Source: Candidatus Lloydbacteria bacterium (GTDB taxonomy: Bacteria; Patescibacteriota; Minisyncoccia; Phycocordibacterales; UBA6899). From it: 52,294 nt of DNA. Below, piece after piece: positions 194 through 51,770 of the stretch. The translations under genes and the position numbers were made by a program. A model generated the notes under the pieces. It ran no database searches. It was not told where the DNA came from and saw only the letters and a program-made list of their open reading frames with translations. Location of the stretch: assembly GCA_043719805.1 (NCBI GenBank), contig JAYSTI010000054.1, positions 1-52,294 on the forward strand, given 5' to 3'. Numbering within the stretch: the stretch's first letter is position 1; each line of letters begins with the position of its first letter.

Positions 194-320
194 GTGGGAC
201 TTTTAGAAATAGAGGAAATTCGCGGCGCGGGGAGGGCGGAAAGGAAGACTTATTCATATAAGTTGACCGAGTCGCTCTGGCCCCACAACAAAGAAGTTCG
301 CCATTTATGAAAGTTCCCAC
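194..320 (+). repeat. Dispersed structured element, family A, copy A1
   Basis: Outer arms GTGGGACTTT / AAAGTTCCCAC; core GAAATTCG...GGAAG-ACTTAT tcat ATAAGT-TGACCGAG...CAACAAAGAAGTTCGCC shared with other copies in the window. Confidence 0.75.
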
Positions 321-411
321 TCATCTTTTGGGGAAGAGTCTTATCTGTGGCATACTGATGAGTAAATTGGCTTTCGAAGTGATACGTGTCGCCAATTCCT
401 ATACTGAAGCT

Positions 412-439
412 AGCATAGCACAACCAATTTTTATGTCAA
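412..439 (-). promoter_or_regulatory. Sigma70-type promoter pointing out of the left edge
   Basis: Minus strand TTGACA-N16-TATGCT with TG extension; a second TTGACA-N17-TATGGT lies at about 157-185. Confidence 0.45.
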
Positions 440-520
440 CCCTATTTTAGGATTTTCACACTATTTTCTTTATTTGTAACGTATAATTCGACTACTGAGG
501 TAGTGCAGGTATAAAAAAAT

Positions 521-1540
521 ATGACAAAAAATCCATCGACGGACACAGACGACATTACTCTCCAGCACAAAGAAGCGTTGTTTTTGGACCAGAAGCTCCG
601 ACCGGAGCGCTGGGATGATTACATCGGACAAAGCCACATCAAACAGAACTTGGAAATTCTTCTTGCTGCGGCAAAGGAGCGTTCACACCCGCCGGAACAC
701 CTTCTTTTTTACGGGCCACCAGGACTTGGAAAGACTACACTCGCACATCTCATTGCAAAGGAAACAAAAGCGCAGATGAAAAGCACATCGGGCCCGGCAA
801 TAGAGAAAGTTGGCGATCTCGCGTCAATCCTCACAAACCTCAATCCCGGCGACATTCTTTTTATTGACGAAATCCATCGCTTGAACAAAATGGTCGAAGA
901 GGTGCTCTATCCCGCCATGGAGTCCGGTGTCCTCGACATCATCATCGGCAAAGGCCCGTCGGCACGAACAATTCAACTAGAGCTTCCGCCATTCACACTT
1001 ATCGCCGCAACAACACGCATTGCACTCCTCTCCGCGCCGCTTCGCTCGCGTTTCTCAGGTGGGGTCTTCCGTCTTGAATTTTATACTGAAGCGGAAATTG
1101 AGGAGATTGTCACCCGCTCGTCCAAAATCCTAGGGGTACCCCTGGAAAAGGGTGCGGGGCATGAGATAGCAATGCGTAGCCGCTTCACCCCGCGCACCGC
1201 AAATTATTTTTTGAAACGCGCACGCGATTTTGCACAAGTGAGCAAAACCTCACTCGACGAAACCGCAGTCAAAGAAGCACTGCGTCTCCTTGAGATAGAC
1301 GAGATTGGATTGGGCCAGCCCGACAGACACCTGCTCACTATCCTCATAGAAAAATTTGGCGGCCGTCCCGTTGGTCTTGGTACAATCGCCGCGGCGACAA
1401 GCGAAGAAGCCGCAACCATAGAAGAAGTCTATGAACCATATCTCCTTAAACTCGGACTCCTCGAACGCACCCCGCGCGGCAGAATCCCCACAAAAAAAGC
1501 ATATGAGCATCTCGGTTTCGATTATCCGGAAGCATTGTAG
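521..1540 (+). CDS. ruvB: Holliday junction branch migration helicase RuvB
   Basis: LRP..W.DYIGQ start, Walker A GPPGLGKTT, Walker B LFIDEIHR, VYEPYL...RTPRGR C-terminal motif. Confidence 0.97.
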   Translation: MTKNPSTDTDDITLQHKEALFLDQKLRPERWDDYIGQSHIKQNLEILLAAAKERSHPPEHLLFYGPPGLGKTTLAHLIAKETKAQMKSTSGPAIEKVGDLASILTNLNPGDILFIDEIHRLNKMVEEVLYPAMESGVLDIIIGKGPSARTIQLELPPFTLIAATTRIALLSAPLRSRFSGGVFRLEFYTEAEIEEIVTRSSKILGVPLEKGAGHEIAMRSRFTPRTANYFLKRARDFAQVSKTSLDETAVKEALRLLEIDEIGLGQPDRHLLTILIEKFGGRPVGLGTIAAATSEEAATIEEVYEPYLLKLGLLERTPRGRIPTKKAYEHLGFDYPEAL

Positions 1541-1575
1541 GAGAAGCTACTCTCGTAGTAGCTGAACCCTGACCG

Positions 1576-2331
1576 TTATTCGAGAAGAAACAGCATTCCG
1601 CTCAGGACAAAGGTGGCGACTATCAGTAGCGCTCTCTTTTTGTGTCGCTCGATGTAATGGATGAGCTTTAGTCCAACATATCCGATCAGTACATAAACAG
1701 GAAGAATCGCCACGGAGGATACGTGGGCAAGATCGCCGGGGAGATAGTAGAAAATGTTTGCGGAAAAAAGCAGCACCGAAAGAATATTTATGAGCGTTTC
1801 CATAATGATCACGTCTATTCCCATGATCATCGCGATGGTACTATCGGAGAACTCGCTGTTACCGCGCGACGCAAGAACTTCATGAAAACAATAAAAATGA
1901 AATCCGTACGTTGGCCAAAGCACCATCATGATGAGTGAGGTATACCCATGATGTATCGGCGCAACATGATACAGAAATATTGGATTTCCAAAGACTAACG
2001 CCGCAATGGTATTAATGACCACTTCACCAAGTGGCGCAACAAGCCCTGCAACACTCATATAGACTAGCGCTTTGGGAAGATTGATATGGACGAATCTGCG
2101 TGCAATCAGAGAATTAAAAAGATATATCAGCACCGCAAAAAATAGGCCAAAAAATAAGAAAAATATGATAAAAGGAATGCCCGCATCATCACTCCCAAGT
2201 TTTGAAGAAAAAGAATCTTTACTGATGACCCCTGCTCGTTCGAGTAAAGTAATAAGTCCTAAAATCCCAACATAAAGCAGCCCGACATATCCTAAAATTC
2301 GCAGTTTGAGTATCCGGTCCGCTTTCTTCAT
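1576..2331 (-). CDS. Multi-pass membrane protein, unknown function
   Basis: 251 aa from MKKADR, about 7 hydrophobic segments; TATACT 6 nt upstream of the ATG at 2331. Confidence 0.7.
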   Translation of the reverse strand: MKKADRILKLRILGYVGLLYVGILGLITLLERAGVISKDSFSSKLGSDDAGIPFIIFFLFFGLFFAVLIYLFNSLIARRFVHINLPKALVYMSVAGLVAPLGEVVINTIAALVFGNPIFLYHVAPIHHGYTSLIMMVLWPTYGFHFYCFHEVLASRGNSEFSDSTIAMIMGIDVIIMETLINILSVLLFSANIFYYLPGDLAHVSSVAILPVYVLIGYVGLKLIHYIERHKKRALLIVATFVLSGMLFLLE

Positions 2332-2413
2332 AGTATTAGTATACCAATTTGCCCTGAATCTCATCTTTGGGTAATATCAAATTATTAGAAGGTGGGTTAA
2401 ATACTCTCTCAAT

Positions 2414-2947
2414 ATGTCAGGTCACAGTAAATGGGCACAGATCAAAAGGCAAAAAGGTGCGGAGGACGCAAAAAAATCGAAAGTGTTCGGCAAGCTCGGA
2501 AGTCTTATTGCAACCGAATCGCGCAAAGCCGCAGGTGACACAAATTCCCCAGGGCTCCGCATGCTCATCGAGAAGGCAAAAAAGGAAAATATGCCAAAAG
2601 ACACCATCGAACGTGCCATCAAAAAGGGTGCGGGTGGCGAAGTGGAGGTCATGGAATCCCTTACCTACGAAGGATACGGGCCCGGAGGTTGTGCGCTCAT
2701 CATTGAAGCGTTCACCAGCAATCGCAATAAAGCCGCACAGGAGATTAAGCATATCCTTACAAGAAGCGGCGGCTCACTTGCTACACAAGGCGCAGCCGCG
2801 TGGGCATTCACAAAGTCTGAGGAGGAAGGATGGGTGGCAAACTCCACCATTCCCCTCTCTGATGAAGATGGCGCAGTGCTTTCGACCATCATCGAAGATC
2901 TCGAGGGGAACGACGAAGTGCAGGAAGTTTTCACTAACGCTGATTAG
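2414..2947 (+). CDS. yebC: YebC/PmpR (TACO1) family protein, short form
   Basis: MSGHSKWAQIKRQK N-terminus, YEGYGPGG, DEVQEVFTN end; 177 aa. Confidence 0.93.
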   Translation: MSGHSKWAQIKRQKGAEDAKKSKVFGKLGSLIATESRKAAGDTNSPGLRMLIEKAKKENMPKDTIERAIKKGAGGEVEVMESLTYEGYGPGGCALIIEAFTSNRNKAAQEIKHILTRSGGSLATQGAAAWAFTKSEEEGWVANSTIPLSDEDGAVLSTIIEDLEGNDEVQEVFTNAD

Positions 2948-2970
2948 TTTTGGGATGTTACAATTTGAAA

Positions 2971-3459
2971 ATGAAAGTACTCGCTATTGACCCTGGGTTT
3001 GGCCGCTGCGGAGTTGCAGTACTCGACGGCAGTAGCACAGCCGCCACACTGCTCTACTCGGCTTGTATCGAGACGGATAAAAAAGACAGCTTCCCCGACC
3101 GACTCCTTGCAGTCGCAAACGAAATCCTGCGCATCATTGATGCCTATGCACCGGAAACAATGTCCATTGAAGAAATATACTTTACTAACAATGCAAAGAC
3201 CGCCATCAACGTGGCCGAAATTCGCGGCATGCTTATCTACCTCGCAACATCACGCAGTATCCCATTGGTCGAATTCAATCCCCTTGCAGTGAAAATCGCC
3301 ATCACCGGCTACGGCCGTGCGACCAAAGAACAAGTCACCATGATGGTCGAAAAACTCGTCACCGTCCCGAAGCGAAAGATGCTCGACGATGAATACGACG
3401 CCATAGCACTCGGTCTCACCACCCTCGCCCACGCAAGGCACAATCAATCGCGTCAGTAG
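2971..3459 (+). CDS. ruvC: Holliday junction resolvase RuvC
   Basis: LAIDPG, IEE, VKIAITGYGRATKEQV, DDEYDAIALG; start moved to MKVLAID. Confidence 0.95.
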   Translation: MKVLAIDPGFGRCGVAVLDGSSTAATLLYSACIETDKKDSFPDRLLAVANEILRIIDAYAPETMSIEEIYFTNNAKTAINVAEIRGMLIYLATSRSIPLVEFNPLAVKIAITGYGRATKEQVTMMVEKLVTVPKRKMLDDEYDAIALGLTTLAHARHNQSRQ

Positions 3460-3514
3460 TCATTTTTGTCCCTACTGCTTATGCTGCCTATCCACCTCCA
3501 GAATCTTATTGTGC

Positions 3515-4054
3515 TTATCCTTTCACTGTGTCTGGAATTGCAGATACAGTAGATTTTGAAATCTGCGTATCAACAACAACACCCAAAAGGGCTCCTACTA
3601 TCAAAGAGGGAACCAGCCACTTGAGAGATGGATGGGTGGCTTCGACATGTTTCTCTGAAACCCTCAATGTGCGAAATAAAAAATAGGAGAGTGCCAGCTG
3701 AGGGAGAACAGTGAGAGCAATCATCAATCCCTGTATCTCCCACCATTCGATTCCCGTTGAATCATTAATTACCTCGGTAAATATTAAATTAAACACAACA
3801 CCTGCCATTGCAAAAAAGAAAACTGATGACAGCAGCACGCTATCCCATAAATTTCTCCTAATTAGAAAACCCAAAATTACAGTTACCACAAAGAGAGGGA
3901 GGGCAGGAGTCCCGTACCACAATACTCCAGACCCAACTAAACCAAAAATCCCCATAACTGCGTAAAACAATAGCCCAGCATAACAACTACGTTTCAATGT
4001 GCTGGTAATTGATATTTGACGATATGACTGTTTGCGAAGAAATAAAATTAACAC
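3515..4054 (-). CDS. Membrane protein, possibly 5'-disrupted
   Basis: About 5 hydrophobic segments, AT-rich; no in-frame ATG before a TGA at 4106-4108. Confidence 0.45.
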   Translation of the reverse strand: MLILFLRKQSYRQISITSTLKRSCYAGLLFYAVMGIFGLVGSGVLWYGTPALPLFVVTVILGFLIRRNLWDSVLLSSVFFFAMAGVVFNLIFTEVINDSTGIEWWEIQGLMIALTVLPQLALSYFLFRTLRVSEKHVEATHPSLKWLVPSLIVGALLGVVVDTQISKSTVSAIPDTVKG

Positions 4055-4310
4055 AAAAACAACTGCAGTAGTGAATATATATCGGATAAATCTGCAGAGA
4101 TGGAATCATTCATTCATCTTACACAAAAAATTCTGAAACAATATTAAAATATCCGGAGCTAACTGAAGGCGTTTTAACTCAAGCTTCCTCCCAAGCGAGA
4201 GCTTACCACTTCCAAATGGCTTCTTGACGGGCAATTTGTTGACTTGCCGTTTGCCGTGACAATGCACCGAGAAATGTCTGCTGGCCACAGGAACTCCAAC
4301 CTGCAGAGCG

Positions 4311-4741: not shown

Positions 4742-4744
4742 TTA

Positions 4745-8950: not shown

Positions 8951-9211
8951 TTACGATATATCAATAATATCTCCCCTACCGCTTTCCCTAATCTGTTTAA
9001 TTATTTGTGCTTTGTGGAGAAATAATTCATTTTTTACAACCGCAGACGCTTTTATTGTAATCACTCCTTTTACAATAGTCATTGTCTTTTCATCTAACAG
9101 GATTCCTGTCTCGCTATTTATGATATTCAGTAGCGCATCACGCTTATCATCTTCATGAGACAATTTTTTTTTATATTTTTCGAGATATTCTTTTATACTA
9201 AATAACTGCAT
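8951..9211 (-). CDS. DciA/DUF721-like small protein (putative replicative helicase loader)
   Basis: GVITIKASAVVKNELFLHKAQIIKQI resembles the DciA core; directly downstream of dnaN. Confidence 0.5.
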   Translation of the reverse strand: MQLFSIKEYLEKYKKKLSHEDDKRDALLNIINSETGILLDEKTMTIVKGVITIKASAVVKNELFLHKAQIIKQIRESGRGDIIDIS

Positions 9212-9218
9212 AGTATTT

Positions 9219-9343
9219 AAAAATCAATTAAATAAATCTATATGCGAGGCGTGGGGAAAGTGAAGAAGAAGACATATTCTTATATGGCGACTGATTCACA
9301 GGGTCCCCACAACAAAGCAGATAGTTTTATTTTATTGATTTTT
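9219..9343 (+). repeat. Family A element, copy A2
   Basis: Arms AAAAATCAAT / ATTGATTTTT; TGCGAGGCGTGGGGAAAG...GAAGA-CATAT tctt ATATG-GCGAC...CCCCACAACAAAGCAG; fills the dnaN-downstream gap. Confidence 0.75.
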
Positions 9344-10443
9344 TAGCCTTTCATTGGCATGACGAGGTATTGGAATGTGTTGTCTCCAACTCCCTTAATA
9401 ATCAAAGCTCGCCCCCCACCACTCGCAGACAACGAAATACTATCCACACCCATGTAAGAAAATACATCCATTAAAAACCTTTGGTTCAAAAGAAATTCAA
9501 CATCATCACCCTTGAGTGTGGCATCAATTTGGTGCGTAGTCTCACCAATATCATCATTACGCGACTCTATTTCTACAAATTTCTCGCTCGGATATATTTT
9601 CAAACGCACTTGCTGTAATTTTCCAGAAAAAACAGTAGTGAGCTTCAACCTATCAATCATGTCTTGGCGAAGAATAATCGCTTCAGTAAGAAATTGTTTA
9701 GGAATTATTTGTTGATAATCAGGAAATACTCCATCCACAAGACGAGAGGTGATGTGCATATGCTCGGTGTGAAAGGAAATCTGATTTTTTGTCGCCACAA
9801 TCTTCACTGTTCCATCGATATTTTCAAGTGCTCTCATTATTTCAAGCACATTCCTTCCGGGTATCAATAAAGAAAAATGTTCTACAGTCTTCTTCAACGG
9901 AATACGTTTCTCAGCAAGACGAGAGGAATCGGAAGCCACCATCACCAATGACTGTTCATCGGTATAACAATAAATACTCGAAAATTCCGGTTTGATGTCT
10001 GACGTCGCAACTGCGTATGACGTCGCGCGAAATGCCCCCAGGAGAGATTTTATGTCTATTTCGAGCTCGGTACCCTTTGTGATGAATGGAAGCGTTGGGA
10101 AGTCCTCGTAGCCGAATCCTTTGATAAGTGTGGAGTACGACGCACCGGTGATAGTGAGATGTTCTCCGACCTGCTCAATTGTCACGTTTTTTTCGTTTGG
10201 AAGATTGGAGAGGAAATTTCCGAGTGTATCTGCAGGAATGGCAATAACACCTTCCTTGTCGATGCGGGCGGGTATTTCAATTTCAATTCCAAGATCGAGA
10301 TTTGTTGCACGTATCTTTAATACTTTTTCTCCGGCAATAAAAAGTACGTATCGCAATACCGGTAATGAAAGTTGTTTACCAGTAAAACGTTCTGCGATCA
10401 GCAGTGCGTCTTTTAAATTTAGTTTTACACACTCTACTTTCAT
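9343..10443 (-). CDS. dnaN: DNA polymerase III beta sliding clamp
   Basis: ATNLDLGI, DFPTLP, ASDSSRLA, SRLVDGVFPDYQQIIP, YLVMPM. Confidence 0.97.
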   Translation of the reverse strand: MKVECVKLNLKDALLIAERFTGKQLSLPVLRYVLFIAGEKVLKIRATNLDLGIEIEIPARIDKEGVIAIPADTLGNFLSNLPNEKNVTIEQVGEHLTITGASYSTLIKGFGYEDFPTLPFITKGTELEIDIKSLLGAFRATSYAVATSDIKPEFSSIYCYTDEQSLVMVASDSSRLAEKRIPLKKTVEHFSLLIPGRNVLEIMRALENIDGTVKIVATKNQISFHTEHMHITSRLVDGVFPDYQQIIPKQFLTEAIILRQDMIDRLKLTTVFSGKLQQVRLKIYPSEKFVEIESRNDDIGETTHQIDATLKGDDVEFLLNQRFLMDVFSYMGVDSISLSASGGGRALIIKGVGDNTFQYLVMPMKG

Positions 10444-10692: not shown

Positions 10693-12042
10693 TTAAAACA
10701 ATGCACGTATCTGTTCAATTTCTTGAAGTAAAAGTGAATCAGTTTTTATGTCACCTTTTATTTTTTCACACGAGTGAATGACGGTAGTGTGATCTCTTCC
10801 TCCAAGTTTCTGCCCGATAAGCGGATAAGAAATATTGAAGTCTTGGCGCAGAATGTACATTAATACTTGGCGTGGTTTTACGACCTCCTTACGGCGAGTT
10901 TTTTCAAAGATGAAACGTTCGTCGATGTTGTAGAATGTCGTGACTGTTTTTACAATATCTTTTATAGATACTGGCTTTGTCGGCTTTGCGTTGTTTTTAA
11001 TGAGTGTTTTTATTTCATTCAACGAGAGGGGTTTGTTTTTAAGTTGAGACTGGCACACTACGAGATTGAGTGTTCCCTCAAGCTCACGAATGCTTGCTTG
11101 TATTGTCTCAGCAATATATTGAACGATGTCGTCCGGGACAAGTACCTGCTGCTGCTTCAGTTTTTCCTGAAGGATTGCGAGGCGAGATTCGTATTCCGGC
11201 ATCGTTATTTCAACAATCATCCCGGAACCAAATCGTGATTTCAGTCGATCTTCAAGTCCATTAATATAATTCGGGTGTTTATCAGATGAAAAAATAATCT
11301 GTTTATTGTTTTCATAGAGTGCATTATAGAGATGGAAGAGCTCTTCCTGTGTCTTTTCTTTGCCGACAAGAAACTGAATGTCATCCATGATGAGTACATC
11401 GTACTTACGATATTTATCTTTGAACTCATTCACGCGATTATTCTGTAATGAAGTTACATAATCGGTTGAAAATTTTTCCGAACTCACATACTGCACTTTT
11501 TTTCCGGGGTTTTGCTTTTTTATTCCGTTCCCAATTGATTGAGTGAGATGTGTTTTTCCGAAACCGGTTGAACCATAGATAAACAGAGGGTTGTACATAA
11601 TGCCGGGTTTCTTCAGTACTGCTTGTGCAGCGGCATATGCCAGTTCGTTGAACGGTCCGATGACAAATGAATCAAATGTATACCGGGGATTCAATCCATC
11701 TTCTTTGCTGACGTAGGTATCTTGGAGCGGGAGTTCTCCAACAAAAGGCGAGAATACTTCTTTTTTATTCACCTGTTCATTTTTCTCAATTCCGTCATCT
11801 TTTGTGATGACATATTCGACGTTTTTTACATCCGATGAGACATTGCGGAGAATGCGGATGATTGTGGAGTGGTACTTATTAGAAAGCCAATCACGAACGA
11901 ATTCGTTTTGTACTCCGACGTAGACCGTCCCCTGATCTTGCTTGGTGATGCGGGTGTTTTTGAACCAAGTGCTGAAATTTGCCCGAGAAACTTCGAGTTC
12001 GATGTCGACCAATGCTTTGCTCCATAATTCTTTGTTATCCAT
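10693..12042 (-). CDS. dnaA: Chromosomal replication initiator DnaA
   Basis: NPRYTFDSFV, YNPLFIYGSTGFGKTHL, DDIQFL, RELEG, GGRDHTTVIHS. Confidence 0.98.
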   Translation of the reverse strand: MDNKELWSKALVDIELEVSRANFSTWFKNTRITKQDQGTVYVGVQNEFVRDWLSNKYHSTIIRILRNVSSDVKNVEYVITKDDGIEKNEQVNKKEVFSPFVGELPLQDTYVSKEDGLNPRYTFDSFVIGPFNELAYAAAQAVLKKPGIMYNPLFIYGSTGFGKTHLTQSIGNGIKKQNPGKKVQYVSSEKFSTDYVTSLQNNRVNEFKDKYRKYDVLIMDDIQFLVGKEKTQEELFHLYNALYENNKQIIFSSDKHPNYINGLEDRLKSRFGSGMIVEITMPEYESRLAILQEKLKQQQVLVPDDIVQYIAETIQASIRELEGTLNLVVCQSQLKNKPLSLNEIKTLIKNNAKPTKPVSIKDIVKTVTTFYNIDERFIFEKTRRKEVVKPRQVLMYILRQDFNISYPLIGQKLGGRDHTTVIHSCEKIKGDIKTDSLLLQEIEQIRALF

Positions 12043-12055
12043 AGAAGATCGACGC

Positions 12056-12148
12056 CCCGTTAGAAATTAATAAGATGTGCACAAATACTTTTTTATCTGA
12101 TGATAACGATATTGAGTTATGAGCGAGCACGGAAACATTTCTAACGGG
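12056..12148 (-). promoter_or_regulatory. Stem-loop in the putative dnaA 5' leader
   Basis: Perfect 12-bp inverted repeat CCCGTTAGAAAT (12056-12067) / ATTTCTAACGGG (12137-12148); minus-strand TATAAT at 12180-12185. Confidence 0.5.
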
Positions 12149-12214
12149 ATGCGCGTGATATTTCAATAACGTAAGAAGCATTATAGCGAAGAAGTTTGGA
12201 TGAACGAAAAATGT

Positions 12215-33524: not shown

Positions 33525-33710
33525 GAATCCGTGCGAGTGGATGAAATTCGAAGCGTGGAGAAAGCGGAGAGCGACCTAAAATTCGACGGCCGTAGGGAGT
33601 ATGAATTTGGAAGTCCCGGAACGGGGAAGACATATTCATATATGTTGACCGAGCTGCAGAGGCATAAGTGCATCACCTTACAACAAGAAGTTCGCCGCTT
33701 GCATGGATTC
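33525..33710 (+). repeat. Family A element, copy A3 (long variant)
   Basis: Arms GAATCCGTGCGAGTGG / CCGCTTGCATGGATTC (all three deviations are G-U on plus); GGATGAAATTCG...GGAAG-ACATAT tcat ATATGT-TGACCGAG...CAACAAGAAGTTCGCC; fills the pcrA-rsmA gap. Confidence 0.78.
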
Positions 33711-33712: not shown

Positions 33713-35737
33713 CTATATATAGACAACGGTGTCGTTGTCATCATCCCAGCCGAGGAGGCTCACTTTTTTGCCGTGCTTATTGAATGAGTCATCTGTAAAT
33801 GCTTCGCCTTCACGGGATTCATTTATCAGAAGGTTGTCATCGAGGTCGTTGAGGAACTCTGAGGGAATATTTATGTTGCGGCTTCCGAAGATTGTGCGGA
33901 ATGAGGCATAAGAAAGGAAGACCTTTTTTGCTGCGCGAGTAAGCGCAACATAGAAAAGGCGGCGCTCCTCTTCGCGTTCCGACTGGTCTTTACTTTCGTC
34001 CTGCGACCGTCGTGACGGGAAAAGGTCTTGCTCCATTCCCGTGATGAAGACGTAAGGGAATTCGAGTCCTTTTGATGCGTGAATGGTCATGAGGCGTACC
34101 GCGTCAACCTCACCCTTCATGGTGTCCTGGTCCGACTCAAGTGCGACATCGGCGAGAAACTGCTCAATGCCTTCTTGTCCTTCAAATACGTCATAACGCG
34201 TTGCAACGGATACGAGTTCGCGCACGTTCGCGAGTCGCTCGGTGTCTTCTTCGTCGCCATCAGAAAGTATTTTCTCAATGCCGGTTTCTTTGATGATGAA
34301 TGCGATGAGTACGGATGGCTTCATTGCTTCCCCGGCAACTTTAATGCGGTCAAGGAGCGCGTAAAACTGTGAAACTTTAATACGCATTGTTGCTGGGAGT
34401 TTTTCCATGTCGCCCGCGAGTATTTTTGCCAGTGTTACTTTTCCAACCCCGCGTGCCGGGACATTGATGACACGCTCAAGGTCGAAGGGGGAGTTCGGGT
34501 TGCGCGACGCCTTCAGATACGAAAGCACATCCTTCACTTCTTTGCGCTCGTAAAAACGCACACCGAGCACTTGATAAGGAATACCAGCAAAGAGAAGCGC
34601 CTCTTCAAGTACGCGCGATTGAAAGTTCGTGCGATAGAGAATTGCCATTTCCGTTGCGCGTACATTGCTCGAAAGCAGTGTCGCAATACGCATTGCAACA
34701 AAACGCGCCTCATCGGTTTCGTCGTACCCTGCAAAAAGCGAGAGTTTTTCCCCGGCAACGTTTTCCGTGAACAATTTCTTTTCTTTGCGCATCGTATTCT
34801 TCTTTATCACTGTATTTGCGGCGGAAAGAATATTCTGAGTAGAGCGATAATTCTGCTCAAGCAGGATGACACGCGCGCCTGGGTAGTCTTCTTCAAAGTT
34901 GAGAATGTTTGCGATCGACGCGCCGCGCCAGCTATAAATATTTTGGTCACTGTCACCAACGACGCAAATATTTTTTGTTTTGCCTGAGAGTAGCCGCACG
35001 AGTTGGTATTGCACTTGGTTGGTGTCCTGGTACTCATCCACGTGGATGTACTGCCACTGTGTTTGGTAGTAGTGGAGGATGTCCTCGTGCGACTGCAGTA
35101 GTTTGACTGTTTTTTCTAGCAGGTCGTCAAAATCAAGCACATTCGCGCTTCGCAGTGCCTCCTCGTAAAGAATGAACACGCGCTTTAGGGTGGTGGCCAA
35201 ATAACGATTGTTCGTAGTGCTCTCTATGGTATCGGGGGTCCCAAGGTTCCCCTTATGGCGAGAGATAAGACCCTGCACTTTGCGTGGCTCGAACTGTTTC
35301 GGGTCGACTCCCGCCTTTGCCATTGATTGCTTGATGAGCTTGAGCGATTCATCTTGCGCCAAAATACTCGCGCTTTTTGGTATGCCTATTGCCTCTCCTT
35401 TTTCGCGCAAAATAGAGATACCCAGTCCGTGAAAAGTTCCGATGAACGGGAGGTCGCGCCTTCGCCCGAAATTTCCGGCCTCACCTTCTGTTCCCAGAAG
35501 TGTGAAAACCCGCTCGCGCATTTCTTTCGCAGCCTTGTTGGTGAAGGTGATGGCAAGTATGGCCCCTCCCGGGACTCCCTTTTCCATGATGTGGCCTATA
35601 CGATGGGTCAATGTTTTGGTTTTTCCCGCCCCCGCACCCGCTACGATAAGTACGGGGCCCTCCGTCGCGAGGACCGCTTCTTTTTGTGCGGGATTTAAAT
35701 TGGCGAGGAGATCTTTGGTCATATTCTCGGAATACAT
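33713..35737 (-). CDS. pcrA: ATP-dependent DNA helicase PcrA/UvrD
   Basis: AGAGAGKT, TFTNKAA, VDEYQDTN, GDSDQNIYSWRGA, NYRS, MTIHASKGLEF, EERRLFYVALTRA; start 35737 or 35722. Confidence 0.95.
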   Translation of the reverse strand: MYSENMTKDLLANLNPAQKEAVLATEGPVLIVAGAGAGKTKTLTHRIGHIMEKGVPGGAILAITFTNKAAKEMRERVFTLLGTEGEAGNFGRRRDLPFIGTFHGLGISILREKGEAIGIPKSASILAQDESLKLIKQSMAKAGVDPKQFEPRKVQGLISRHKGNLGTPDTIESTTNNRYLATTLKRVFILYEEALRSANVLDFDDLLEKTVKLLQSHEDILHYYQTQWQYIHVDEYQDTNQVQYQLVRLLSGKTKNICVVGDSDQNIYSWRGASIANILNFEEDYPGARVILLEQNYRSTQNILSAANTVIKKNTMRKEKKLFTENVAGEKLSLFAGYDETDEARFVAMRIATLLSSNVRATEMAILYRTNFQSRVLEEALLFAGIPYQVLGVRFYERKEVKDVLSYLKASRNPNSPFDLERVINVPARGVGKVTLAKILAGDMEKLPATMRIKVSQFYALLDRIKVAGEAMKPSVLIAFIIKETGIEKILSDGDEEDTERLANVRELVSVATRYDVFEGQEGIEQFLADVALESDQDTMKGEVDAVRLMTIHASKGLEFPYVFITGMEQDLFPSRRSQDESKDQSEREEERRLFYVALTRAAKKVFLSYASFRTIFGSRNINIPSEFLNDLDDNLLINESREGEAFTDDSFNKHGKKVSLLGWDDDNDTVVYI

Positions 35738-36118: not shown

Positions 36119-37174
36119 ATGCGAAGTCGGGTCAGCGCCCTTCAGACCAAAACGCTTTCATGGAAAAAGCTCGGCTTTTCTATGTTTGCATTCCTCATCA
36201 TCCCAGGAGCCGTTGCATATGCCGGCTTCTTTTCTTTTTTTGGCGATCTTGGGGATATTTTCACAAAGGCAAATACTCAAGAAAAAATAATTAATTCACA
36301 GAATTTCCCTCTTCAGGTTGCTGCAGTTGCATATGGTGCTCAGTCTGTCGAACCTTCAAGTGAGGTGAGCACGGTTGGTGACAGTGCGATACTTCCTGAT
36401 GCGGGACCGGACGGCGGGCTTTCTGATGTCGACAATCAAGAATCAAGTCGTGGGCAGATCAGTCTTTATGTTGTCCACGAAGGAGACTCGCTGGCTTCTA
36501 TCGGGAAAATGTTTGATGTTTCTGTGAATACCATTCTTTGGGCGAACAGCCTTCCCCGGGGAACAAAGCTGACAATCGGGCAGAACCTCGTCATTCTTCC
36601 TGTTTCCGGAGTCCGGTATGTCGTTAAAAAGGGAGATACGGTCGCGTCAATCGCCAAAAAGTACAAAGGAGACCTCGATGAAATCCGTTCGTATAATGGC
36701 CTAGAGGGTGACGTCTTGGCGGTCGGCTCGGTGGTAATAGTCCCTGATGGTGAGATCGCCGCACCTCCGGTTGCAACAAAGCCCGCAACGTCAAAACTTC
36801 GCGGTGCAGGCGGTCCCTCATACGACGGATACTATCGTGCCCCCCTCGCAAACTACCGCAAGACGCAGGGAACTCATGGATACAACGGCGTTGACCTTGT
36901 TTCAAGAGACGGCTCGGGTGCATATGTGATGGCGGCAGCTGTAGGAACGGTAATCATTTCTCGCAACGGCGGATACAACGGCGGTTATGGAAGTTATGTC
37001 GTTATCAAACATGCGAACGGAACTCAGACGCTTTACGGTCATCTCAAGGGAACTGCAGTTTCAGTTGGAGAGAGCGTGGCGCAGGGGCAATTGATAGGAT
37101 ATGAAGGGAATACGGGGAGAAGTTCGGGCACACACCTTCACTTCGAAGTCCGCGGCGCGAGAAATCCATTCTAG
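36119..37174 (+). CDS. LysM-LysM-M23 peptidoglycan endopeptidase
   Basis: Two LysM repeats (YVVHEGDSL, YVVKKGDTV), HGYNGVD, TLYGHL, GNTGRSSGTHLHFEVR; exact start uncertain. Confidence 0.9.
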   Translation: MRSRVSALQTKTLSWKKLGFSMFAFLIIPGAVAYAGFFSFFGDLGDIFTKANTQEKIINSQNFPLQVAAVAYGAQSVEPSSEVSTVGDSAILPDAGPDGGLSDVDNQESSRGQISLYVVHEGDSLASIGKMFDVSVNTILWANSLPRGTKLTIGQNLVILPVSGVRYVVKKGDTVASIAKKYKGDLDEIRSYNGLEGDVLAVGSVVIVPDGEIAAPPVATKPATSKLRGAGGPSYDGYYRAPLANYRKTQGTHGYNGVDLVSRDGSGAYVMAAAVGTVIISRNGGYNGGYGSYVVIKHANGTQTLYGHLKGTAVSVGESVAQGQLIGYEGNTGRSSGTHLHFEVRGARNPF

Positions 37175-37291
37175 CTTGGCGCACTTCGGTCTTGACTGCG
37201 ACGGGCGGTCGGGAGAACTTACGATGAGTAAGCTCTCTCGGACGCGCCCATCTTGTCACAACCGAATTGCATCCAATCTCGAACGGATTTC
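37161..37291 (-). repeat. Family A element, copy A6
   Basis: Minus strand GGATGCAATTCG...GTCCGAGAGAG-CTTAC tcatc GTAAG-TTCTCCCGACC...CGAAGTGCGCC; outer arm overlaps last codons of the M23 gene. Confidence 0.72.
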
Positions 37292-37297: not shown

Positions 37298-37470
37298 CAT
37301 TTTAAGCGGGCGACCTACTCGGTTTTCCTTCAGCAGATTTGGAAGCAGTATAGCACCGCAGAGATACTTCATTTTTCTAAGCGGATAACCGCTAAGAAAA
37401 ATTGGTCGCTCATACCGCCTCTCAAATACCGCCTTAGTCCAAACCTTCGTATTTCGCCTCGCCTTAAATG
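37298..37470 (-). repeat. Probable divergent family A copy A7, tandem to A6
   Basis: Arms CATTTTAAGCGGGCGA / TCGCCTCGCCTTAAATG; minus strand GGCGAAATACGAAGG...AGTAGGTCGCC; inner TTTTCTAAGCGG-ataa-CCGCTAAGAAAA. Confidence 0.5.
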
Positions 37471-44513: not shown

Positions 44514-44640
44514 CAAGAGTTTATTAAATAGGTTCGAATGCGAGGCGCGGGGAAAGCGACGAGGAAGGCATATTCATATATGGTGACCGAGTCGCGGGGG
44601 TCCCGCAACAATGCAGGCGAATTTATTTTATGAACTCTTG
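44514..44640 (+). repeat. Family A element, copy A4
   Basis: Arms CAAGAGTTTATTAAATAGGTTCG / CGAATTTATTTTATGAACTCTTG; TGCGAGGCGCGGGGAAAG...GGAAGG-CATAT tcat ATATG-GTGACCGAG...CCCGCAACAATGCAG. Confidence 0.78.
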
Positions 44641-47307: not shown

Positions 47308-48090
47308 ATGAACAAAGAAGGAACAATGATTAATGCAGAGTCGCCGATGTTGCGCACGGAGGCCTTCGCACTTTCACGCAAGGCGGTAACCACACGAGCC
47401 GGGGTGAACAATGAGGGAGAGAATATGTTGCCCGGCACACTCGTAGAACGTTCAAAAATTATCGGCGATTTAAGCCATGCAATCGACGAGTGGGTAATGA
47501 AGAATATGCAAGAGGGGGATATTTTTAACCAAGAGCGCTTGGGTCAAATAGTGCACGGCATCGGTGAGTCCCACAAGGAATTGCTGGATCGTCTTGTTGC
47601 TGAGTCAAACAACCGCACATCGTATGTGGGTCGTCCTAATATAAAGATTTATGATGGTGTTGAAGGGATTTTGCCGGACATCTGGTTACTTGGGTGGAGA
47701 GAAGATGCAACCACACTTGAAGCGACAGATATCCATGATCACGTTGATTCGCAGGCTGCATTTCATGTGTACCAAGGCTGCGTTGATGAAATTATCTATA
47801 CTTTTGATCAGGACAAGTGGCACGAGGGTGGAACAGACCTTCCGTGTCAAAAAACCTCGCGCGGACTGCGCCGAGGCTCTACTGCGACAATTCCCGCACC
47901 GTATGTGCACATCGTAAAAGATGCTCGCGATTTTCAGCCCTCGGTGACTGTTCACGCGTACTACCCACCACTCGATCAGATGAATTTTTATGAAGAAAAA
48001 AATGGGGTGCTTGTGCCCAGGGGGGGCTGGGACGAGAAAGCTGAACAAACACATCATTGCGGGTCTCATTGCCACACAGAGGAAAAGTAG
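47308..48090 (+). CDS. Cysteine dioxygenase-like cupin
   Basis: LLGW...TDIHDH..S.AAFHVYQG.VDE, YVHIV, SVTVHAYYPPL. Confidence 0.78.
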   Translation: MNKEGTMINAESPMLRTEAFALSRKAVTTRAGVNNEGENMLPGTLVERSKIIGDLSHAIDEWVMKNMQEGDIFNQERLGQIVHGIGESHKELLDRLVAESNNRTSYVGRPNIKIYDGVEGILPDIWLLGWREDATTLEATDIHDHVDSQAAFHVYQGCVDEIIYTFDQDKWHEGGTDLPCQKTSRGLRRGSTATIPAPYVHIVKDARDFQPSVTVHAYYPPLDQMNFYEEKNGVLVPRGGWDEKAEQTHHCGSHCHTEEK

Positions 48091-48103
48091 TCTGTCGACA
48101 CGT

Positions 48104-48131
48104 AAAAAACACCGCAGGTGCGGTGTTTTTT
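48104..48131. terminator. Bidirectional intrinsic terminator
   Basis: AAAAAACACCGCA-gg-TGCGGTGTTTTTT between convergent genes. Confidence 0.8.
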
Positions 48132-48138
48132 GTTTGTC

Positions 48139-50295
48139 CTATTCTGTCGATGGTTTTGGTGTCGGTGTGAATTTTTGTACCGGCGGTGCATCTTTCTGTG
48201 TGAAGAAATTGGCATCTGCACGTTTGATAGAAAGATTGATGCGGCCCTTGTCGTCAACTTCTTTCACGACGACCGGTACCTCCATCCCTTCCTTCACATA
48301 ATCCCCCACCTTCTCGATGCGGAACGAGGCGAGCTCCGAGACGTGTACAAGTCCTTCTGCGCTGTGTCCAATCTTCACAAACGCACCGAAGTCCATCAGT
48401 CGCGTGACGACACCCTTGAACATTTCTCCTGCGATATATTCGTGGGTCATTTCGGCGATGATGTCGCGGGCCTTTTCCGCCGCTCCGTTCTTGCCGGTGC
48501 AGAATACGGTCCCATCATCTTCGATATCAATCTCCGCTCCCGTCTGTTCACGAATTTCGTTGACCGTCTTCCCGCCTGACCCGATGACCATGCCGATTTG
48601 GTCAGGCTTGATCTTGATGACTACAATCTTCGGTGCGTATGGTGAGATGTCGGCGCGAGGTGCTGCGATCGCCGCTTTCATTGTTTCAAGAATTGTCAGA
48701 CGTGCTGCCTTTGCTTTTGCGAATGCTTCCTTGAGAATCGGGAGTGGAATTCCTCCGACCTTCACGTCCATCTGAATTGCCGTTACTCCGTTCTTTGTTC
48801 CCGCAACCTTGAAGTCCATGTCTCCATGGTGGTCTTCCGGTCCTTGGATATCTGTGAGCACTTTGTATTTTGTCGCCGATTCCATCATGAGGCCTGACGC
48901 GATGCCGGCAACAGGTGTCGTGATGGGTACACCGGCGTCCATGAGCGCGAGGGTAGAGCCGCAGACAGATGCCATTGAGGTAGAGCCGTTCGAAGCCATT
49001 GATTCGGAAACGATGCGGATGGTGTATGGGAATGCTTCCTTCTCCGGGAGCACAGGAAGAAGTGCCTTCTCGGCGAGTGCACCGTGTCCAATTGCGCGTC
49101 GATTCATTCCGCCCATGCGACCCGTTTCACCGGACGAGAACGGAGGAAAGTTGTAGTGATGCATGTAACGTTTTTTGCCGGACACCTCCATGCTCTCAAG
49201 AATTTGCGAATCCTGCGGTCCACCAAGCGTGAGTGCTGAGAGCACATGCGTACCTCCACGGTAAAAGATGCCTGTTCCGTGAAGAACGGGTGAGATTCCT
49301 CCTGCCTGCGCGAAGAGGGGTCGGACATCGTCAAACCCGCGCCCATCCGGGCGCTTGTTCTCGTTGATGGCTTTGGAGTGAAGAAGGTCGTTTACCTGGT
49401 CGTCGAAGTATTGTTCAGCAAGCTTGTCGCTCATTCCTTCAACCTCTTTTACGTAGCCGAGCCATTCTTCCATTAGCGCATATTCGCTTGCGCGTCCCGC
49501 TAATCCCCAGATTGTCGACTCAAACTTTTGTGCTATTTTTTCTGTGAACAATGCCTTGATATCGTCACCGACGTCATCAAGTACGATGACGCGTTTTGCT
49601 TTTCCGCGCTTTGCGACAATCTCCTTCTGGAACGTTTGAAGTTTCTCGATCTCCTTGCTCGCATATGCAAGTCCTTCCATGATGTCGTCTTCAGGAATTT
49701 CTTTTCCTCCCATCTCGATCATGTTCACGTTGCCGTCTTTTCCGCATACGATAAGTTCACAGTCCCCCTCAATAGTCTCAGTGCCTTCGTCGGCGCGATA
49801 CGTTGGAAGTGTGACCCACGTACCGTTTTGTCTTGAAACGCGCATCGCAGATACCGGTCCGTCGAAAGGAATGTCGGAAACGGCGAGCGCGAGCGACGCG
49901 CCATTCACCGCAAGAATATCCGGCTCATCTTTGTCTATCGCGAGTACGGTGATGACGACTTGCACATCATAGCGGATACGTCCATCAAAAAGCGGGCGAA
50001 TCGTACGGTCGATGATGCGGCCCGAGAGTACTGCAGAATCCGAGGGGCGGCCTTCGCGGCGCATGAAGCGGCTCCCGAGAATTTGCCCCGACGCATAGAA
50101 GCGCTCCTCGAAATCTACCGTGAGCGGAAAGAAATCACCCCCTTCACGCTTTCTGTTGGACATGATCGTTGTCGCAAGGATGACCGTGTTGCCGTAGCGC
50201 AACATCACCGAGCCATGTGCCTGATCTGCAAGGTCATTGAATTCAGCAATAAGTTTCTTGCCGCCAATCTCAATCTCGTAAGATTCTTTTTTCAT
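48139..50295 (-). CDS. pnp: Polyribonucleotide nucleotidyltransferase (PNPase)
   Basis: DFFPLTVDFEER, RREGRPS, HHYNFPPFS.GE, SNGSTSMASVC, GDMDFKVAGT, KH and S1 domains. Confidence 0.98.
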   Translation of the reverse strand: MKKESYEIEIGGKKLIAEFNDLADQAHGSVMLRYGNTVILATTIMSNRKREGGDFFPLTVDFEERFYASGQILGSRFMRREGRPSDSAVLSGRIIDRTIRPLFDGRIRYDVQVVITVLAIDKDEPDILAVNGASLALAVSDIPFDGPVSAMRVSRQNGTWVTLPTYRADEGTETIEGDCELIVCGKDGNVNMIEMGGKEIPEDDIMEGLAYASKEIEKLQTFQKEIVAKRGKAKRVIVLDDVGDDIKALFTEKIAQKFESTIWGLAGRASEYALMEEWLGYVKEVEGMSDKLAEQYFDDQVNDLLHSKAINENKRPDGRGFDDVRPLFAQAGGISPVLHGTGIFYRGGTHVLSALTLGGPQDSQILESMEVSGKKRYMHHYNFPPFSSGETGRMGGMNRRAIGHGALAEKALLPVLPEKEAFPYTIRIVSESMASNGSTSMASVCGSTLALMDAGVPITTPVAGIASGLMMESATKYKVLTDIQGPEDHHGDMDFKVAGTKNGVTAIQMDVKVGGIPLPILKEAFAKAKAARLTILETMKAAIAAPRADISPYAPKIVVIKIKPDQIGMVIGSGGKTVNEIREQTGAEIDIEDDGTVFCTGKNGAAEKARDIIAEMTHEYIAGEMFKGVVTRLMDFGAFVKIGHSAEGLVHVSELASFRIEKVGDYVKEGMEVPVVVKEVDDKGRINLSIKRADANFFTQKDAPPVQKFTPTPKPSTE

Positions 50296-50440
50296 AACAT
50301 GAAATTATGTTGCGGTATCCAGATTCTCAAATTGAACCGTAAGTTCAACTGGATGATCCGGATGCCACTGCTATTAATAGGGTTACTCTATCAAAATGGC
50401 ACAAAATGAAAAGGGCTGCCATGCGCAGCCCAATCGTGGG

Positions 50441-50638
50441 TTAAGGAGCAACGCGCATGGAGATGGTAGCGTTGGTGACAATGCTCACGTCGAGCTTGTC
50501 TCGTGGCACGCCTGGAAATTTGGAACAGAGCTCCTTGATGCCCGCCAGCAGGTCCTCCGCGGTGAGTTCTCTGGTTTGGACGAGAAGTAGCGTGTTTATG
50601 TTGCGCTTCACAACATAGGGTTTCTTGGGTTTTGCCAT
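50441..50638 (-). CDS. Hypothetical protein (65 aa)
   Basis: GGAGG SD 5 nt before ATG. Confidence 0.5.
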   Translation of the reverse strand: MAKPKKPYVVKRNINTLLLVQTRELTAEDLLAGIKELCSKFPGVPRDKLDVSIVTNATISMRVAP

Positions 50639-50741
50639 TCATCCTCCGTTGGTGAAATTCATCCAGGCGTGATGGTACACCATCTTGAAGAAGGTAGCAA
50701 AATTGTGCAAAAAACAAAGGCCCCGCATTGGGGCCATATTG

Positions 50742-50969
50742 TCACTCACCAGTTCGCGCGAGAAAGTCGTCCGGGTCATTGTCCCACCTGGGCACAAAGA
50801 CCCAAAGCAGAATGTATACGGTGATAGGAAAGCCGACACCGAGGGCGTTGATGAGCACCCAAAGCAGCCGGACTACCCAGGTCGGTATGCCTAAGTTATA
50901 TGCAATACCCGCACATACGCCACCCAGCCATGCGTGCTCATGTGCAAGTCGCAAACTTGTATTCCTCAT
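50742..50969 (-). CDS. pspC: PspC domain membrane protein
   Basis: LGGVCAGIAYNLGIPTWVVRL...YILLWVFVP; GAGGAG SD. Confidence 0.88.
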   Translation of the reverse strand: MRNTSLRLAHEHAWLGGVCAGIAYNLGIPTWVVRLLWVLINALGVGFPITVYILLWVFVPRWDNDPDDFLARTGE

Positions 50970-51031
50970 TAATGCTCCTCAAAATATTCTCTCCCGTAAG
51001 CCTAATCGCTTGTGGGAAATTGTCAATCTAC

Positions 51032-51634
51032 CTAAAGCGATACTGCGCGTCGTGGGCGTGGATTTTCGCCGCCGTCTCTGCCTCCCCGTCCGTTGCTGCG
51101 CGGAGCACTTCTTCGCTTGTCTTTGAATCCCATGAGATATGCACTGGGGTCGTCGGAGAGATCAAAAAAGTCGTCGGCTGCTTCTCGAAGCTTTGATGAC
51201 GCGGACTTGCCGAAGGCGATGACCTCGACCTGGATACCCATGTTTATTTGGAGATATTTCACGAGCGGCTCAAAGTCGCCGTCACCCGATGCGATAATGA
51301 TGGAGTCGAGTTTTGGTGCGAGCGTGATTGCGTCGACGGCAAGGCCGACATCCCAGTCTCCTTTTTTTGCACCACCCCAGAATTCCTGAAGTTCTTTCGA
51401 ACGTGTTTCGATGCCGATCTTCGCAAGCGCATCAAAAAATCCCTGCTCCTCGCCGGATTTTGTCGAGATGACATACGCCATGGCACGAATGAGTTTTCGG
51501 CCGGCAACTGCATCGACTAAGATATTATTAAAGTTCACTCGCGCATCATCGTAGAGATTTTTTGCGCTGTGATAAAGATTCTGCGTATCGATAAAGACGC
51601 CGACGCGTTGGTCCTTGTGTTTTGTGACTGACAT
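51032..51634 (-). CDS. NYN (LabA/DUF88, PIN-like) domain protein
   Basis: VFIDTQNLYHSA, KGDWDVGLAVDA, SGDGDF.PLV, LREAADDF; start MSVTKH. Confidence 0.92.
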   Translation of the reverse strand: MSVTKHKDQRVGVFIDTQNLYHSAKNLYDDARVNFNNILVDAVAGRKLIRAMAYVISTKSGEEQGFFDALAKIGIETRSKELQEFWGGAKKGDWDVGLAVDAITLAPKLDSIIIASGDGDFEPLVKYLQINMGIQVEVIAFGKSASSKLREAADDFFDLSDDPSAYLMGFKDKRRSAPRSNGRGGRDGGENPRPRRAVSL

Positions 51635-51642
51635 AAAAGTAT

Positions 51643-51770
51643 GCAATCATCCAATTTTGGCGAACTTCTTTGCTGGCTTCAATGATCGGTCCGGAGGACA
51701 TACTCAAAGTATGCCTTCTCGGACACGCTCATTTCGTCGTCTCGAATTTCATCCAAAATTTGCCGATTGC
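51643..51770 (-). repeat. Family A element, copy A5
   Basis: Minus strand GCAATCGGCAAATTTT-GGATGAAATTCG...GTCCGAGAAGG-CATAC tttga GTATG-TCCTCCGGACC...CAGCAAAGAAGTTCGCC-AAAATTGGATGATTGC. Confidence 0.78.

Follow-up and report, generated by a model that had tools for sequence, protein, structure and literature searches.

The 52,294-nt contig JAYSTI010000054.1 (assembly GCA_043719805.1) of a Candidatus Lloydbacteria bacterium, analysed over its whole length and referred to below as the window, carries dispersed hairpins of about 126 nt, termed family A. These are probably a new family of non-autonomous, TA-flanked palindromic insertion elements of the bacterial MITE kind (miniature transposable elements with inverted repeats), proper to candidate phyla radiation (CPR) bacteria of the Parcubacteria/Paceibacteria type and under host-level constraint. 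The assignment to the MITE kind rests on features by which reviews define it: the size, the terminal repeats and TA, the occurrence of filled and empty sites, the end-to-end fold and the in-frame fusions. In the available parts of two reviews, bacterial MITEs are described by a length of 100–200 bp, terminal inverted repeats, terminal TA, target-site duplication and in-frame fusions, and their transcripts by a long stem-loop joining the 5′ and 3′ ends (PMC2229807, PMC10969869).

The genome to which the window belongs (G000) is an assembly of 1.40 Mb in 59 contigs with 49.5% G+C, the window being its contig C50. Copies were scored with R1, a covariance model of 126 positions and 45 pairs for which 21 of the 52 copies in this genome, all of standard length and core type, were used, as well as with nhmmer and with hidden Markov models (HMMs) of a sister type and of an internal module. 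The hairpins of the window were as follows:

194–319, forward strand: A1, core-family copy of subtype GAAATTCG / GAAGTTCGCC, matched by R1 over its full length (112.8 bits, E = 1.4e-30).
9218–9344, forward strand: A2, core-family copy of subtype ATGCG / GCAG, matched by R1 over its full length (123.3 bits).
33525–33710, forward strand: A3, core-family copy with an extra internal module of ~60 nt at 33565–33624; covered by nhmmer over 33536–33701.
37161–37291, reverse strand: A4, sister-type copy, matched by the sister-type HMM at 37176–37276(−) (E = 7.9e-19) and missed by the core models.
37298–37470, reverse strand: A7, composite hairpin adjoining A4, the repeated part of which is a module of ~65 nt at 37347–37411 (fold −77.0 kcal/mol, z = −10.0).
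44515–44639, forward strand: A5, core-family copy of subtype ATGCG / GCAG, matched by R1 over its full length (118.6 bits).
51642–51771, reverse strand: A6, intermediate between core and sister type, matched by R1 over its full length (36.9 bits, E = 4.2e-7) and top match of the sister-type HMM (E = 1.2e-21).

All seven were present where a first-pass annotation, made from the letters of the window only, had placed them. They align mutually, each forms one long imperfect hairpin, and all belong to one superfamily. On the annotated strand, minimum free energies lay between −44 and −77 kcal/mol and z-scores, relative to dinucleotide shuffles, between −4.0 and −13.2 (A1: −46.6 kcal/mol, z = −4.65; A4: −75.5 kcal/mol, z = −13.2), and this strand was the more stable one in 7 of 7 hairpins. 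A3 was matched by R1 in its apical part only (33618–33662(+)), and A4 carries GGATGCAATTCG / CGAAGTGCGCC without the CGAGGCG / CAACAAAG loop. Searches of the window with the core covariance, nhmmer, sister-type and module models returned no copy beyond the seven. The motifs pointed out in the first-pass annotation (GGATGAAATTCG / ATGCGAGGCG, the GAAGA hairpin, CAACAAAG and TTCGCC) correspond to conserved alignment columns. The exchange between GAA/TTC and GCA/TGC was also real (UA in 13, GC in 7 and AU in 1 of 21 copies), but the copies had been interchanged, A5 having TGC/GCA and A6 TTC/GAA.

According to the model, the element is folded over its whole length, end to end, into one rod; the single long stem-loop described for MITE transcripts, with the 5′ end pairing to the 3′ end, would correspond to this predicted fold, which covariation supports. 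Read from the outside inward, the rod begins with the TA, followed by an outer helix (~18 bp, its single-base bulges at constant places) and by GGATGAAATTCG (in a variant form with TTC/GAA swapped for TGC/GCA). Next come an asymmetric internal loop, in which GAGGC faces AACAAA, two helices that are short and variable, an internal loop rich in purines, in which GAGGAAGA faces TTGACCGAG, and an apical hairpin. The sister type has a continuous helix where the core type has the purine-rich loop.

That the stems covary, as had been proposed, was confirmed with the covariance model, compensatory changes lying far above shuffle and slid-partner controls. Among the 21 G000 copies, 86.2% of the pair cells were standard pairs, compared with 73.3 ± 0.8% after shuffling and 35–44% with the partners slid by 1–3 columns; 29 of the 45 pairs were compensatory (21.4 in shuffles), as were 142 cells (49.1 ± 6 in shuffles), and 0 of 500 shuffles attained the observed values. 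In an alignment of 31 copies from other species, which was fitted to R1 and is hence biased towards its structure, 93.1% of the cells were paired, 31 of 45 pairs were compensatory, and 95.8% of the outer-helix cells were paired. Hairpin bounds taken automatically from single folds were unreliable and were left out; a crude loop-motif pairing scan was too noisy.

Compensatory change keeps the rod on one strand only. G.U cells outnumbered A.C cells by 81:28 in the 21-copy alignment and by 87:17 in the 31-copy alignment; after removal of three columns with a conserved G.U or A.C pair, 40:7 were left (binomial p = 1e-6, calculated on cells that are not independent). The known mutation bias linked to transcription would push in the direction opposite to this G.U excess. 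Two U.G pairs were conserved as such (29/31 and 18/31 copies). The forward strand gave the more stable fold in 44 of 45 copies, with a mean margin of 9.7 kcal/mol. Selection on the fold of one strand, suggested earlier, is thus upheld by compensatory changes, pair asymmetry and stability alike, and we infer that what selection sees is the single-stranded forward-strand form, as RNA or single-stranded DNA.

The element, ~120 bp between two TA dinucleotides, ends TA|GGACTTACGCAG...CTGCGTAAGTCC|TA. Copies of the conserved subtype read nTA-GGACTTACGCAGTTGGATGCA...TGCGCCGACTGCGTAAGTCC-TAn, and the bases outside the TA are unrelated between copies. In the 31 copies from other species, GGACTTACGCAGT at one end is matched by its complement at the opposite one, forming terminal inverted repeats, and the terminal columns show U-A in 29 of these copies and A-U in 28. 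TA at both termini is therefore a feature of family A, as of MITEs, with the divergent subtypes of G000 being less regular.

Empty orthologous sites, the comparison proposed in the first-pass annotation, were seen at several loci. Downstream of the gene taken there for dnaN, G000 reads TA-[A2]-TA, whereas G006 is empty, with 4 nt separating the stop codon from the following ATG (TAA AAAT ATG); the same site holds other hairpins of the superfamily in G014 and G009. The rplW–rplB spacer measures 4–20 nt in 6 species and 142–144 nt, with the element between two TAA, in 3 species. It measures 139–148 nt in four more species, and the subtype of the element varies by species. A doubling of TA (or TAA), as a target-site duplication, fits both the dnaN-downstream and the rplW–rplB junctions. 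A comparison with DNA contigs of run X5 gave two useful joints, the rest being mostly noise from other organisms: one contig joins 44512 to 44641 via 4 other letters (GTGA), A5 being absent in this related population, and another joins 33564 to 33625 with 6 other letters, from which it follows that a relative has A3 without the ~60-nt module. In G014, the nearest relative, the site orthologous to A3 holds an element 77% identical over 88 nt.

For a systematic comparison, the 30 best copies of G014 were checked, of which 23 had both flanks on one G000 contig; 7 without syntenic flanks were omitted. At these 23 sites, G000 shared the element in 9 cases, had a gap of ≤13 nt in 8 (one of them, at −141, ambiguous) and held other content in 6. 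One allele, G000:C1:239529–239539, corresponding to G014 L202:1501–1680, has TA-GGAC-TA, with two bases from either element end enclosed by two TA; it could be a cut-and-paste excision scar, or a slippage product between ACT repeats. Together with the TA ends and the in-frame copies in two genes, the filled and empty sites support the non-autonomous mobile element that the first-pass annotation had offered as one of two options.

The two genes are uvrC and glmS. In uvrC, a copy of 42 codons lies in sense orientation in a variable linker in G000, G015, G002 and G008. It is absent in eight relatives whose linker was read, and six further genomes have no room for it, since the two matching pieces are 2 to 18 nt apart. 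Among the four carriers, the outer helices are wholly different yet still pair, and the loops are unchanged. The glmS gene of G014 (640 aa; L203:142–2064) contains an antisense in-frame copy at 1501–1627 that is missing from the G000 gene. Here, the outermost 14 bp of the element are formed by host coding sequence, homologous to the uninterrupted G000 gene, which pairs with an inverted copy at the far end of the insert. This may hint at copying of the target flank or at insertion guided by base pairing; it could also be coincidence. In-gene copies are rare, with 1 clear case among the 52 G000 copies examined. The best frames were open in 12 and 15 of 30 copies (40–50%), compared with 2–4 of 30 in shuffles. 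A conserved peptide as the selected feature was considered and rejected, as the frames are open only in part and the G.U/A.C asymmetry would be left unexplained.

Copy numbers in G000 were determined with several queries: A1 alone found 24 places, iterated nhmmer 52 and R1 53. The sister-type HMM gave 40 matches, 17 already on the core list and 23 further ones; A4 belongs to this group, and A6 bridges the two types. The HMM of the ~65-nt module gave 17 matches, 3 of them nested inside core-family copies, and the module was also found outside family-A copies. Standard copies have 121–131 nt, those with inserts up to ~185 nt among the full-length R1 matches, and one copy defined by nhmmer ~225 nt. 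The small size and many dispersed copies of bacterial MITEs are thus found in family A. At least three kinds of optional internal block were noted, at fixed points of the rod and in either arm; insert-bearing G000 copies are C46:11622–11851, C52:50725–50923, C11:8646–8844 and C7:16583–16782.

In the taxonomic family, R1 matched 28 of 29 genomes, the window's own included, with 1–48 matches per genome; the best scores in some other species were as high as the best of G000 (140 bits), and E-values reached 1e-39. Matches were found in 37 of 150 other sampled genomes of the order (1–17 each, under stricter filters) and in 3 of 150 sampled genomes from the rest of the phylum. An exact pattern of one subtype occurred in 28 stretches among representative genomes, with record titles naming Parcubacteria group, Paceibacteria, Taylorbacteria, Azambacteria, Patescibacteria, some 'uncultured Saccharibacteria' and, for one short contig, Bacteriovoracaceae. 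This last contig (L101, 2.8 kb, from a metagenome-assembled genome (MAG) titled Bacteriovoracaceae) holds a perfect copy of the conserved subtype; it is probably mis-binned, because all other carriers are CPR-type MAGs. Viral contigs contained 0 stretches with the core pattern, and phage and plasmid records gave no match to one well-conserved copy.

Gene context was counted on a crude greedy map of open reading frames (ORFs), in which the stops of long ORFs are reliable and the starts are not; no claim is therefore made from start-codon distances. In 24 of the 52 G000 copies, the 3′ end lies −9 to +5 nt from the stop codon of a gene on the opposite strand, whereas 0 of 52 have their 5′ end within 30 nt of a co-directional stop. 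Among 35 copies from other genomes, the corresponding numbers were 11 convergent-stop 3′ ends and 2 co-directional-stop 5′ ends, and in the S10 operons of 8 genomes 14 of 14 distinct R1 matches were antisense to the operon. The earlier statement that orientation is independent of the neighbouring genes is contradicted by these counts. The stop codon typically consists of TA and the first base of the element (G or A). A scan of 20 of the 24 genes gave infB, efp, frr, rpsB, rpsJ, rplB, rplF, rpsI, rpoC, ftsZ, ftsW/rodA, smc, a gene for a PilB-type ATPase and others.

In the window itself, the 3′ end of A2 overlaps the stop codon of the 366-aa ORF 9343–10443(−), the presumed dnaN of the first-pass annotation; its 5′ end is 7 nt from the start of the minus-strand ORF 8951–9211, and TA is present on both flanks. 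The stop of ORF 33713–35737(−) is 3 nt from the 3′ end of A3, and the 3′ arm of A4 contains the stop codon of ORF 36119–37174(+). The 3′ end of A6 abuts the start of ORF 51032–51646(−) on the same strand, and ORF 521–1540(+) begins 205 nt past the 3′ end of A1.

Other sources of the orientation bias were examined. A promoter search in the 60-nt upstream flanks of 45 copies found nothing shared, and a consensus scan of the S10 locus gave 2 promoter-like sites against 2.5 in shuffles; an outward promoter as the cause is therefore unsupported. A link to replication direction was rejected, since GC skew was positive in 20 of 45 copies and copies on one side of the flip point of the window at ~12 kb point both ways. 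As a separate observation, the GC skew of the window changes sign at ~12000–12200, from negative on the left to positive on the right, beside ORFs 10693–12042(−) and 9343–10443(−), annotated earlier as dnaA and dnaN; this is probably the replication origin. A cause like that described for the ERIC repeats of enterobacteria can only be inferred for the bias, because the folded strand is antisense to transcribed operons.

Sequence conservation was assessed by comparing G000 with G014. Four-fold sites of tuf, rpsJ, rplC, rplD, rplW and rplB were 61.2% identical (n = 690) and third positions 67.9%, compared with 92.1% (127 nt) and 96.1% (128 nt) for the elements after rpsJ and rplB; the remainder of the rpsJ–rplC spacer was 81.9% identical. 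Eight further shared sites with a blastn alignment were 73–84% identical over 85–126 nt, with flanks at 70–85%.

Two features of the S10 region were recorded in addition. The rpsJ–rplC spacer has 145–417 nt in 14 of 14 measurable genomes of the genus (L164:2062–2318, L164 being G000:C58:19900–26800, and equivalents in 13 others), which is unusually long for that junction, and beyond the family-A copy it contains further conserved hairpins. In L164:5229–6133 (G000:C58), past rplB and its element, what is usually the S10 operon is interrupted by a terminator-like hairpin of the two-way kind, a strong promoter-like site (with TG and 11 of 12 matches) and two small ORFs (135 and 132 aa).

For a mobilising enzyme, candidate domains were recorded in five genomes, among them G001 with 40 and G146 with 14 copies:

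Y1_Tnp: present in G000, G014 and G018; absent in G001 and G146.
DDE_3: present in G018; absent in G000, G014, G001 and G146.
RVT_1: present in G000, G018 and G001; absent in G014 and G146.

The corresponding genes of G000 were the following:

C1:195821–196492(−), C52:13382–14104(+) and C11:446–1120(+) (L218–L220): RAYT-like Y1 proteins, three paralogues of 223–240 aa.
C47:14095–14457: IS200-type TnpA, one canonical gene in a 146-aa frame, unlinked to family A.
C1:256157–256768: reverse transcriptase, one gene in a 348-aa frame, unlinked to family A.

The best NCBIfam match of the three RAYT-like proteins was 'REP-associated tyrosine transposase', with 67.6, 36.6 and 40.4 bits against a cut-off of 80. 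With search filters off, no family-A copy was found beside these three genes or the IS200-type gene. In the order sample, a hand count put Y1_Tnp in 22 of the 37 genomes with the element and in 66 of the 113 without it, which shows no association. Proteins of this size class matching Y1_Tnp are found in 88 of 150 order genomes, often in several copies, and very probably do not act on family A. The IS630-like locus of G018 had no ends matching family A. Autonomous relatives were also sought in G000 as distant pairs of terminal motifs; the three candidates enclose ordinary ORFs and their inner ends are unrelated, and two pattern matches scored poorly or not at all by R1 were short variants, not long elements. 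Neither an HUH/Y1 or reverse-transcriptase partner, as considered in the first-pass annotation, nor one of IS630 type thus co-occurred with the element in the five genomes or, for Y1_Tnp and DDE_3, in the 150-genome sample.

Several of the results speak against an insertion element. In the empty alleles of A5 and glmS, the junction lacks a TA; neither G000 nor the loci read contained a long element with family-A ends, and IS630-type DDE_3 was found in 3 of 150 order genomes, in 0 of the 37 element-positive ones and not in G000. The best full-length identity of A1 to another G000 copy is 81% and no near-identical pairs exist within a genome, so that a recent burst is not indicated. The folded strand is opposite to the mRNA in operons by which the elements are certainly transcribed, and conservation above the level of silent sites is unlike decaying selfish DNA and fits a functional element as well or better. 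The antisense position of the folded strand, the high conservation and the lack of a transposase together keep a functional role in the host, and a more novel reading, under consideration. In the former case, family A would be a structured RNA or cis element of the host, a conserved module at the ends of housekeeping genes and between cistrons, anciently multiplied and vertically inherited, which acts via its forward-strand fold, e.g. by processing or stopping antisense transcripts or by binding a protein. We judge this rather unlikely: it would agree with the 92% and 96% identity of orthologous copies against 61% at four-fold sites (73–84% at eight more), with the outer stems at the uvrC site that differ in four species and still pair around constant loops, with the conserved U.G pairs (29/31 and 18/31), the conserved asymmetric loop GAGGC / AACAAA and the optional modules at fixed points, with persistence in 37 order genomes without a co-occurring transposase family, and with neighbours such as infB, efp, frr, rpsB, rpsJ, rplB, rplF, rpsI, rpoC, ftsZ, ftsW and smc. 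However, no conserved promoter or terminator stands beside the copies, their flanks are unrelated, no U-tract follows the rods and the fold is on the strand opposite to the operon mRNA. Moreover, close relatives, which evidently manage without the element, have an empty site at the same junction, or the junction is occupied by different subtypes across species; copies lie within the uvrC and glmS frames, and the distribution in the order is patchy (37/150). The more novel reading is considered unlikely. Under it, family A would not be a passive parasite but a transposase-less system specific to CPR bacteria, the 126-nt rod of which, on the template (antisense) strand, would be selected exactly at the stops of essential genes and between ribosomal-protein cistrons, either serving as a host device or spreading in a new, hairpin-based way. 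As a host device, it would act on antisense-strand RNA or on extruded DNA hairpins, e.g. by ending or processing antisense transcription where intergenic space is scarce; as a spreading element, it would use a hairpin-based mechanism of a new type, at which the glmS copy hints.

Two further explanations carry far less weight. A REPIN-like population, in which a domesticated HUH/Y1 tyrosine transposase (RAYT) would recognise the rod as a hairpin of single-stranded DNA and copy it, would be in line with the strand-specific fold, the long persistence without bursts and the presence of three RAYT-like Y1 proteins and one IS200-type TnpA in G000. It is nevertheless very improbable, as all three proteins are below the 80-bit cut-off, Y1_Tnp is evenly spread (22/37 vs 66/113) and unmatched in G001 and G146, no copy lies beside a Y1 gene, orientation is not linked to replication direction, and the ends, TA-GGAC, are unlike the REP head, GTAG. 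Ordinary hairpins, i.e. intrinsic terminators or chance palindromes, might be thought of in view of the location at gene ends and of separate terminator-like hairpins beside some copies. This explanation is refuted for practical purposes by cross-species model matches with E-values down to 1e-39, by loops and ends conserved in sequence across the order, by the missing U-tract and by the many copies inside ribosomal-protein operons. Intrinsic terminators in particular, which are hairpins rich in G+C with a U-tract behind them, were rejected since neither flank has a T-run and the terminator-like sites of the S10 locus are outside the elements. Integron attC sites, which have paired R″/R′ core sites (RYYYAAC...GTTRRRY) at the hairpin base and stand in cassette arrays, were also rejected: in family A, the rod has TAGGAC / GTCCTA at its base, CAACAAAG with its AAC lies in the internal loop opposite CGAGGCG, and the copies are dispersed beside housekeeping genes.

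The reading as MITE-like insertion elements under host-level constraint is accordingly retained as the preferred one. Under it, insertion would occur at TA, mostly the TA of a stop codon, as is evident at some sites and ambiguous at others. The first purine of the element (G or A) restores the stop codon, as the sequences themselves indicate, and the neighbouring cistron keeps its own short leader. Copies are absent from some alleles, and their loss by deletion may be promoted by the hairpin. The forward-strand rod is kept by selection; copies in the opposite orientation next to stop codons would be purged as harmful to the upstream message, by analogy with ERIC. Mobilisation would be effected in trans by some enzyme, and the copies retained inside operons may have acquired, or may impose, constraint at the level of the host.

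The genomes of CPR/Patescibacteria rank with the smallest and most poorly understood ones, and descriptions of their repeats are scarce; a full-text literature search, with partial coverage and directed at main texts, found no description of such repeats in these bacteria. Family A occupies intergenic space beside core genes in about a quarter of the sampled genomes of a very large order. As operon junctions are split by it and conserved enzymes lengthened by ~40 residues, it matters for gene calling and protein models in these MAGs. The many orthologous and paralogous copies also provide data on structure-preserving evolution, with compensatory change even within a reading frame and a near-absolute rule of orientation at stop codons.

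With respect to known families, searches against Rfam 15 gave 0 matches at the gathering score on the whole window, A1 only chance-level matches (E = 5–7), and six insert-bearing copies one chance-level match (E = 0.59). That no named RNA family can be assigned was thus corroborated; the novelty is lower than the first-pass annotation had implied, because elements of this kind (bacterial MITEs of the ERIC/Correia/RPE type) are already known.

ERIC, or IRU, has reportedly been studied by Wilson and Sharp (2006) and De Gregorio et al. (2005), as cited in a review. Larger ERIC variants with internal inserts exist, and family A likewise has insert-bearing forms. Compared by described features only, and as far as the available review text extends, the enterobacterial ERIC are imperfect palindromes of 127 bp against ~126 nt in family A, and the two are alike in the end-to-end fold, the TA termini, the location in transcribed intergenic space near gene ends, the importance of orientation, the conservation across bacterial families and the lack of a known transposase. 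The terminal repeat of ERIC is given there as 7 bp (PMC2229807), whereas family A has ~13 perfect bp followed by a structured part. At gene 3′ ends, the orientation of ERIC is described in the same parts as deciding the effect on the upstream message, with exposure to RNase E in Yersinia genes (PMC10969869, PMC2229807). Unlike ERIC, family A has a near-absolute orientation bias at stop codons, and its better-folding strand is opposite to the mRNA. A sequence relationship between the two would not be expected, as they occur in different phyla.

Copies of the Correia family of Neisseria are much more alike within a genome than those of family A, where the best identity to A1 is 81%. The Correia elements, or NEMIS, resemble family A in being flanked by TA, in their length of 107–155 bp and long terminal inverted repeats (24 bp), in the existence of short and long forms distinguished by an internal block, in the location near gene ends and in having no transposase assigned to them in the accessible review sections (PMC10969869, PMC2229807). 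There they are also described as co-transcribed, their hairpin RNA being cut by RNase III (PMC10969869, PMC2229807). In family A, by contrast, a consensus scan found no IHF site or outward promoter.

The RPE of Rickettsia, again compared by description only and within the review text available, share with family A the palindromic form (105–146 bp), the occurrence in reduced genomes, the ability to lie in frame within conserved genes and the absence of a known transposase (PMC10969869, PMC2229807); 19 intragenic insertions are reported for RPE (PMC2229807), compared with 1 clear in-gene case among 52 G000 copies. A transposase with an element of matching ends is indicated in the available part of one review only for RUP (IS630-Spn1), and none for most families (PMC2229807). 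The REPIN-RAYT system has in common with family A long hairpins of inverted halves, a strand-specific single-strand structure, long persistence and RAYT-like genes in the genome; family A differs in its ends and in that its copies neither co-occur with Y1 genes nor adjoin them. In REP/REPIN systems, each carrier genome is expected to have a RAYT gene, usually with repeats on its flanks. Family A would thus be a further palindromic family, after ERIC, Correia and RPE, that persists without a visible transposase, and it bears on the question of how such elements move.

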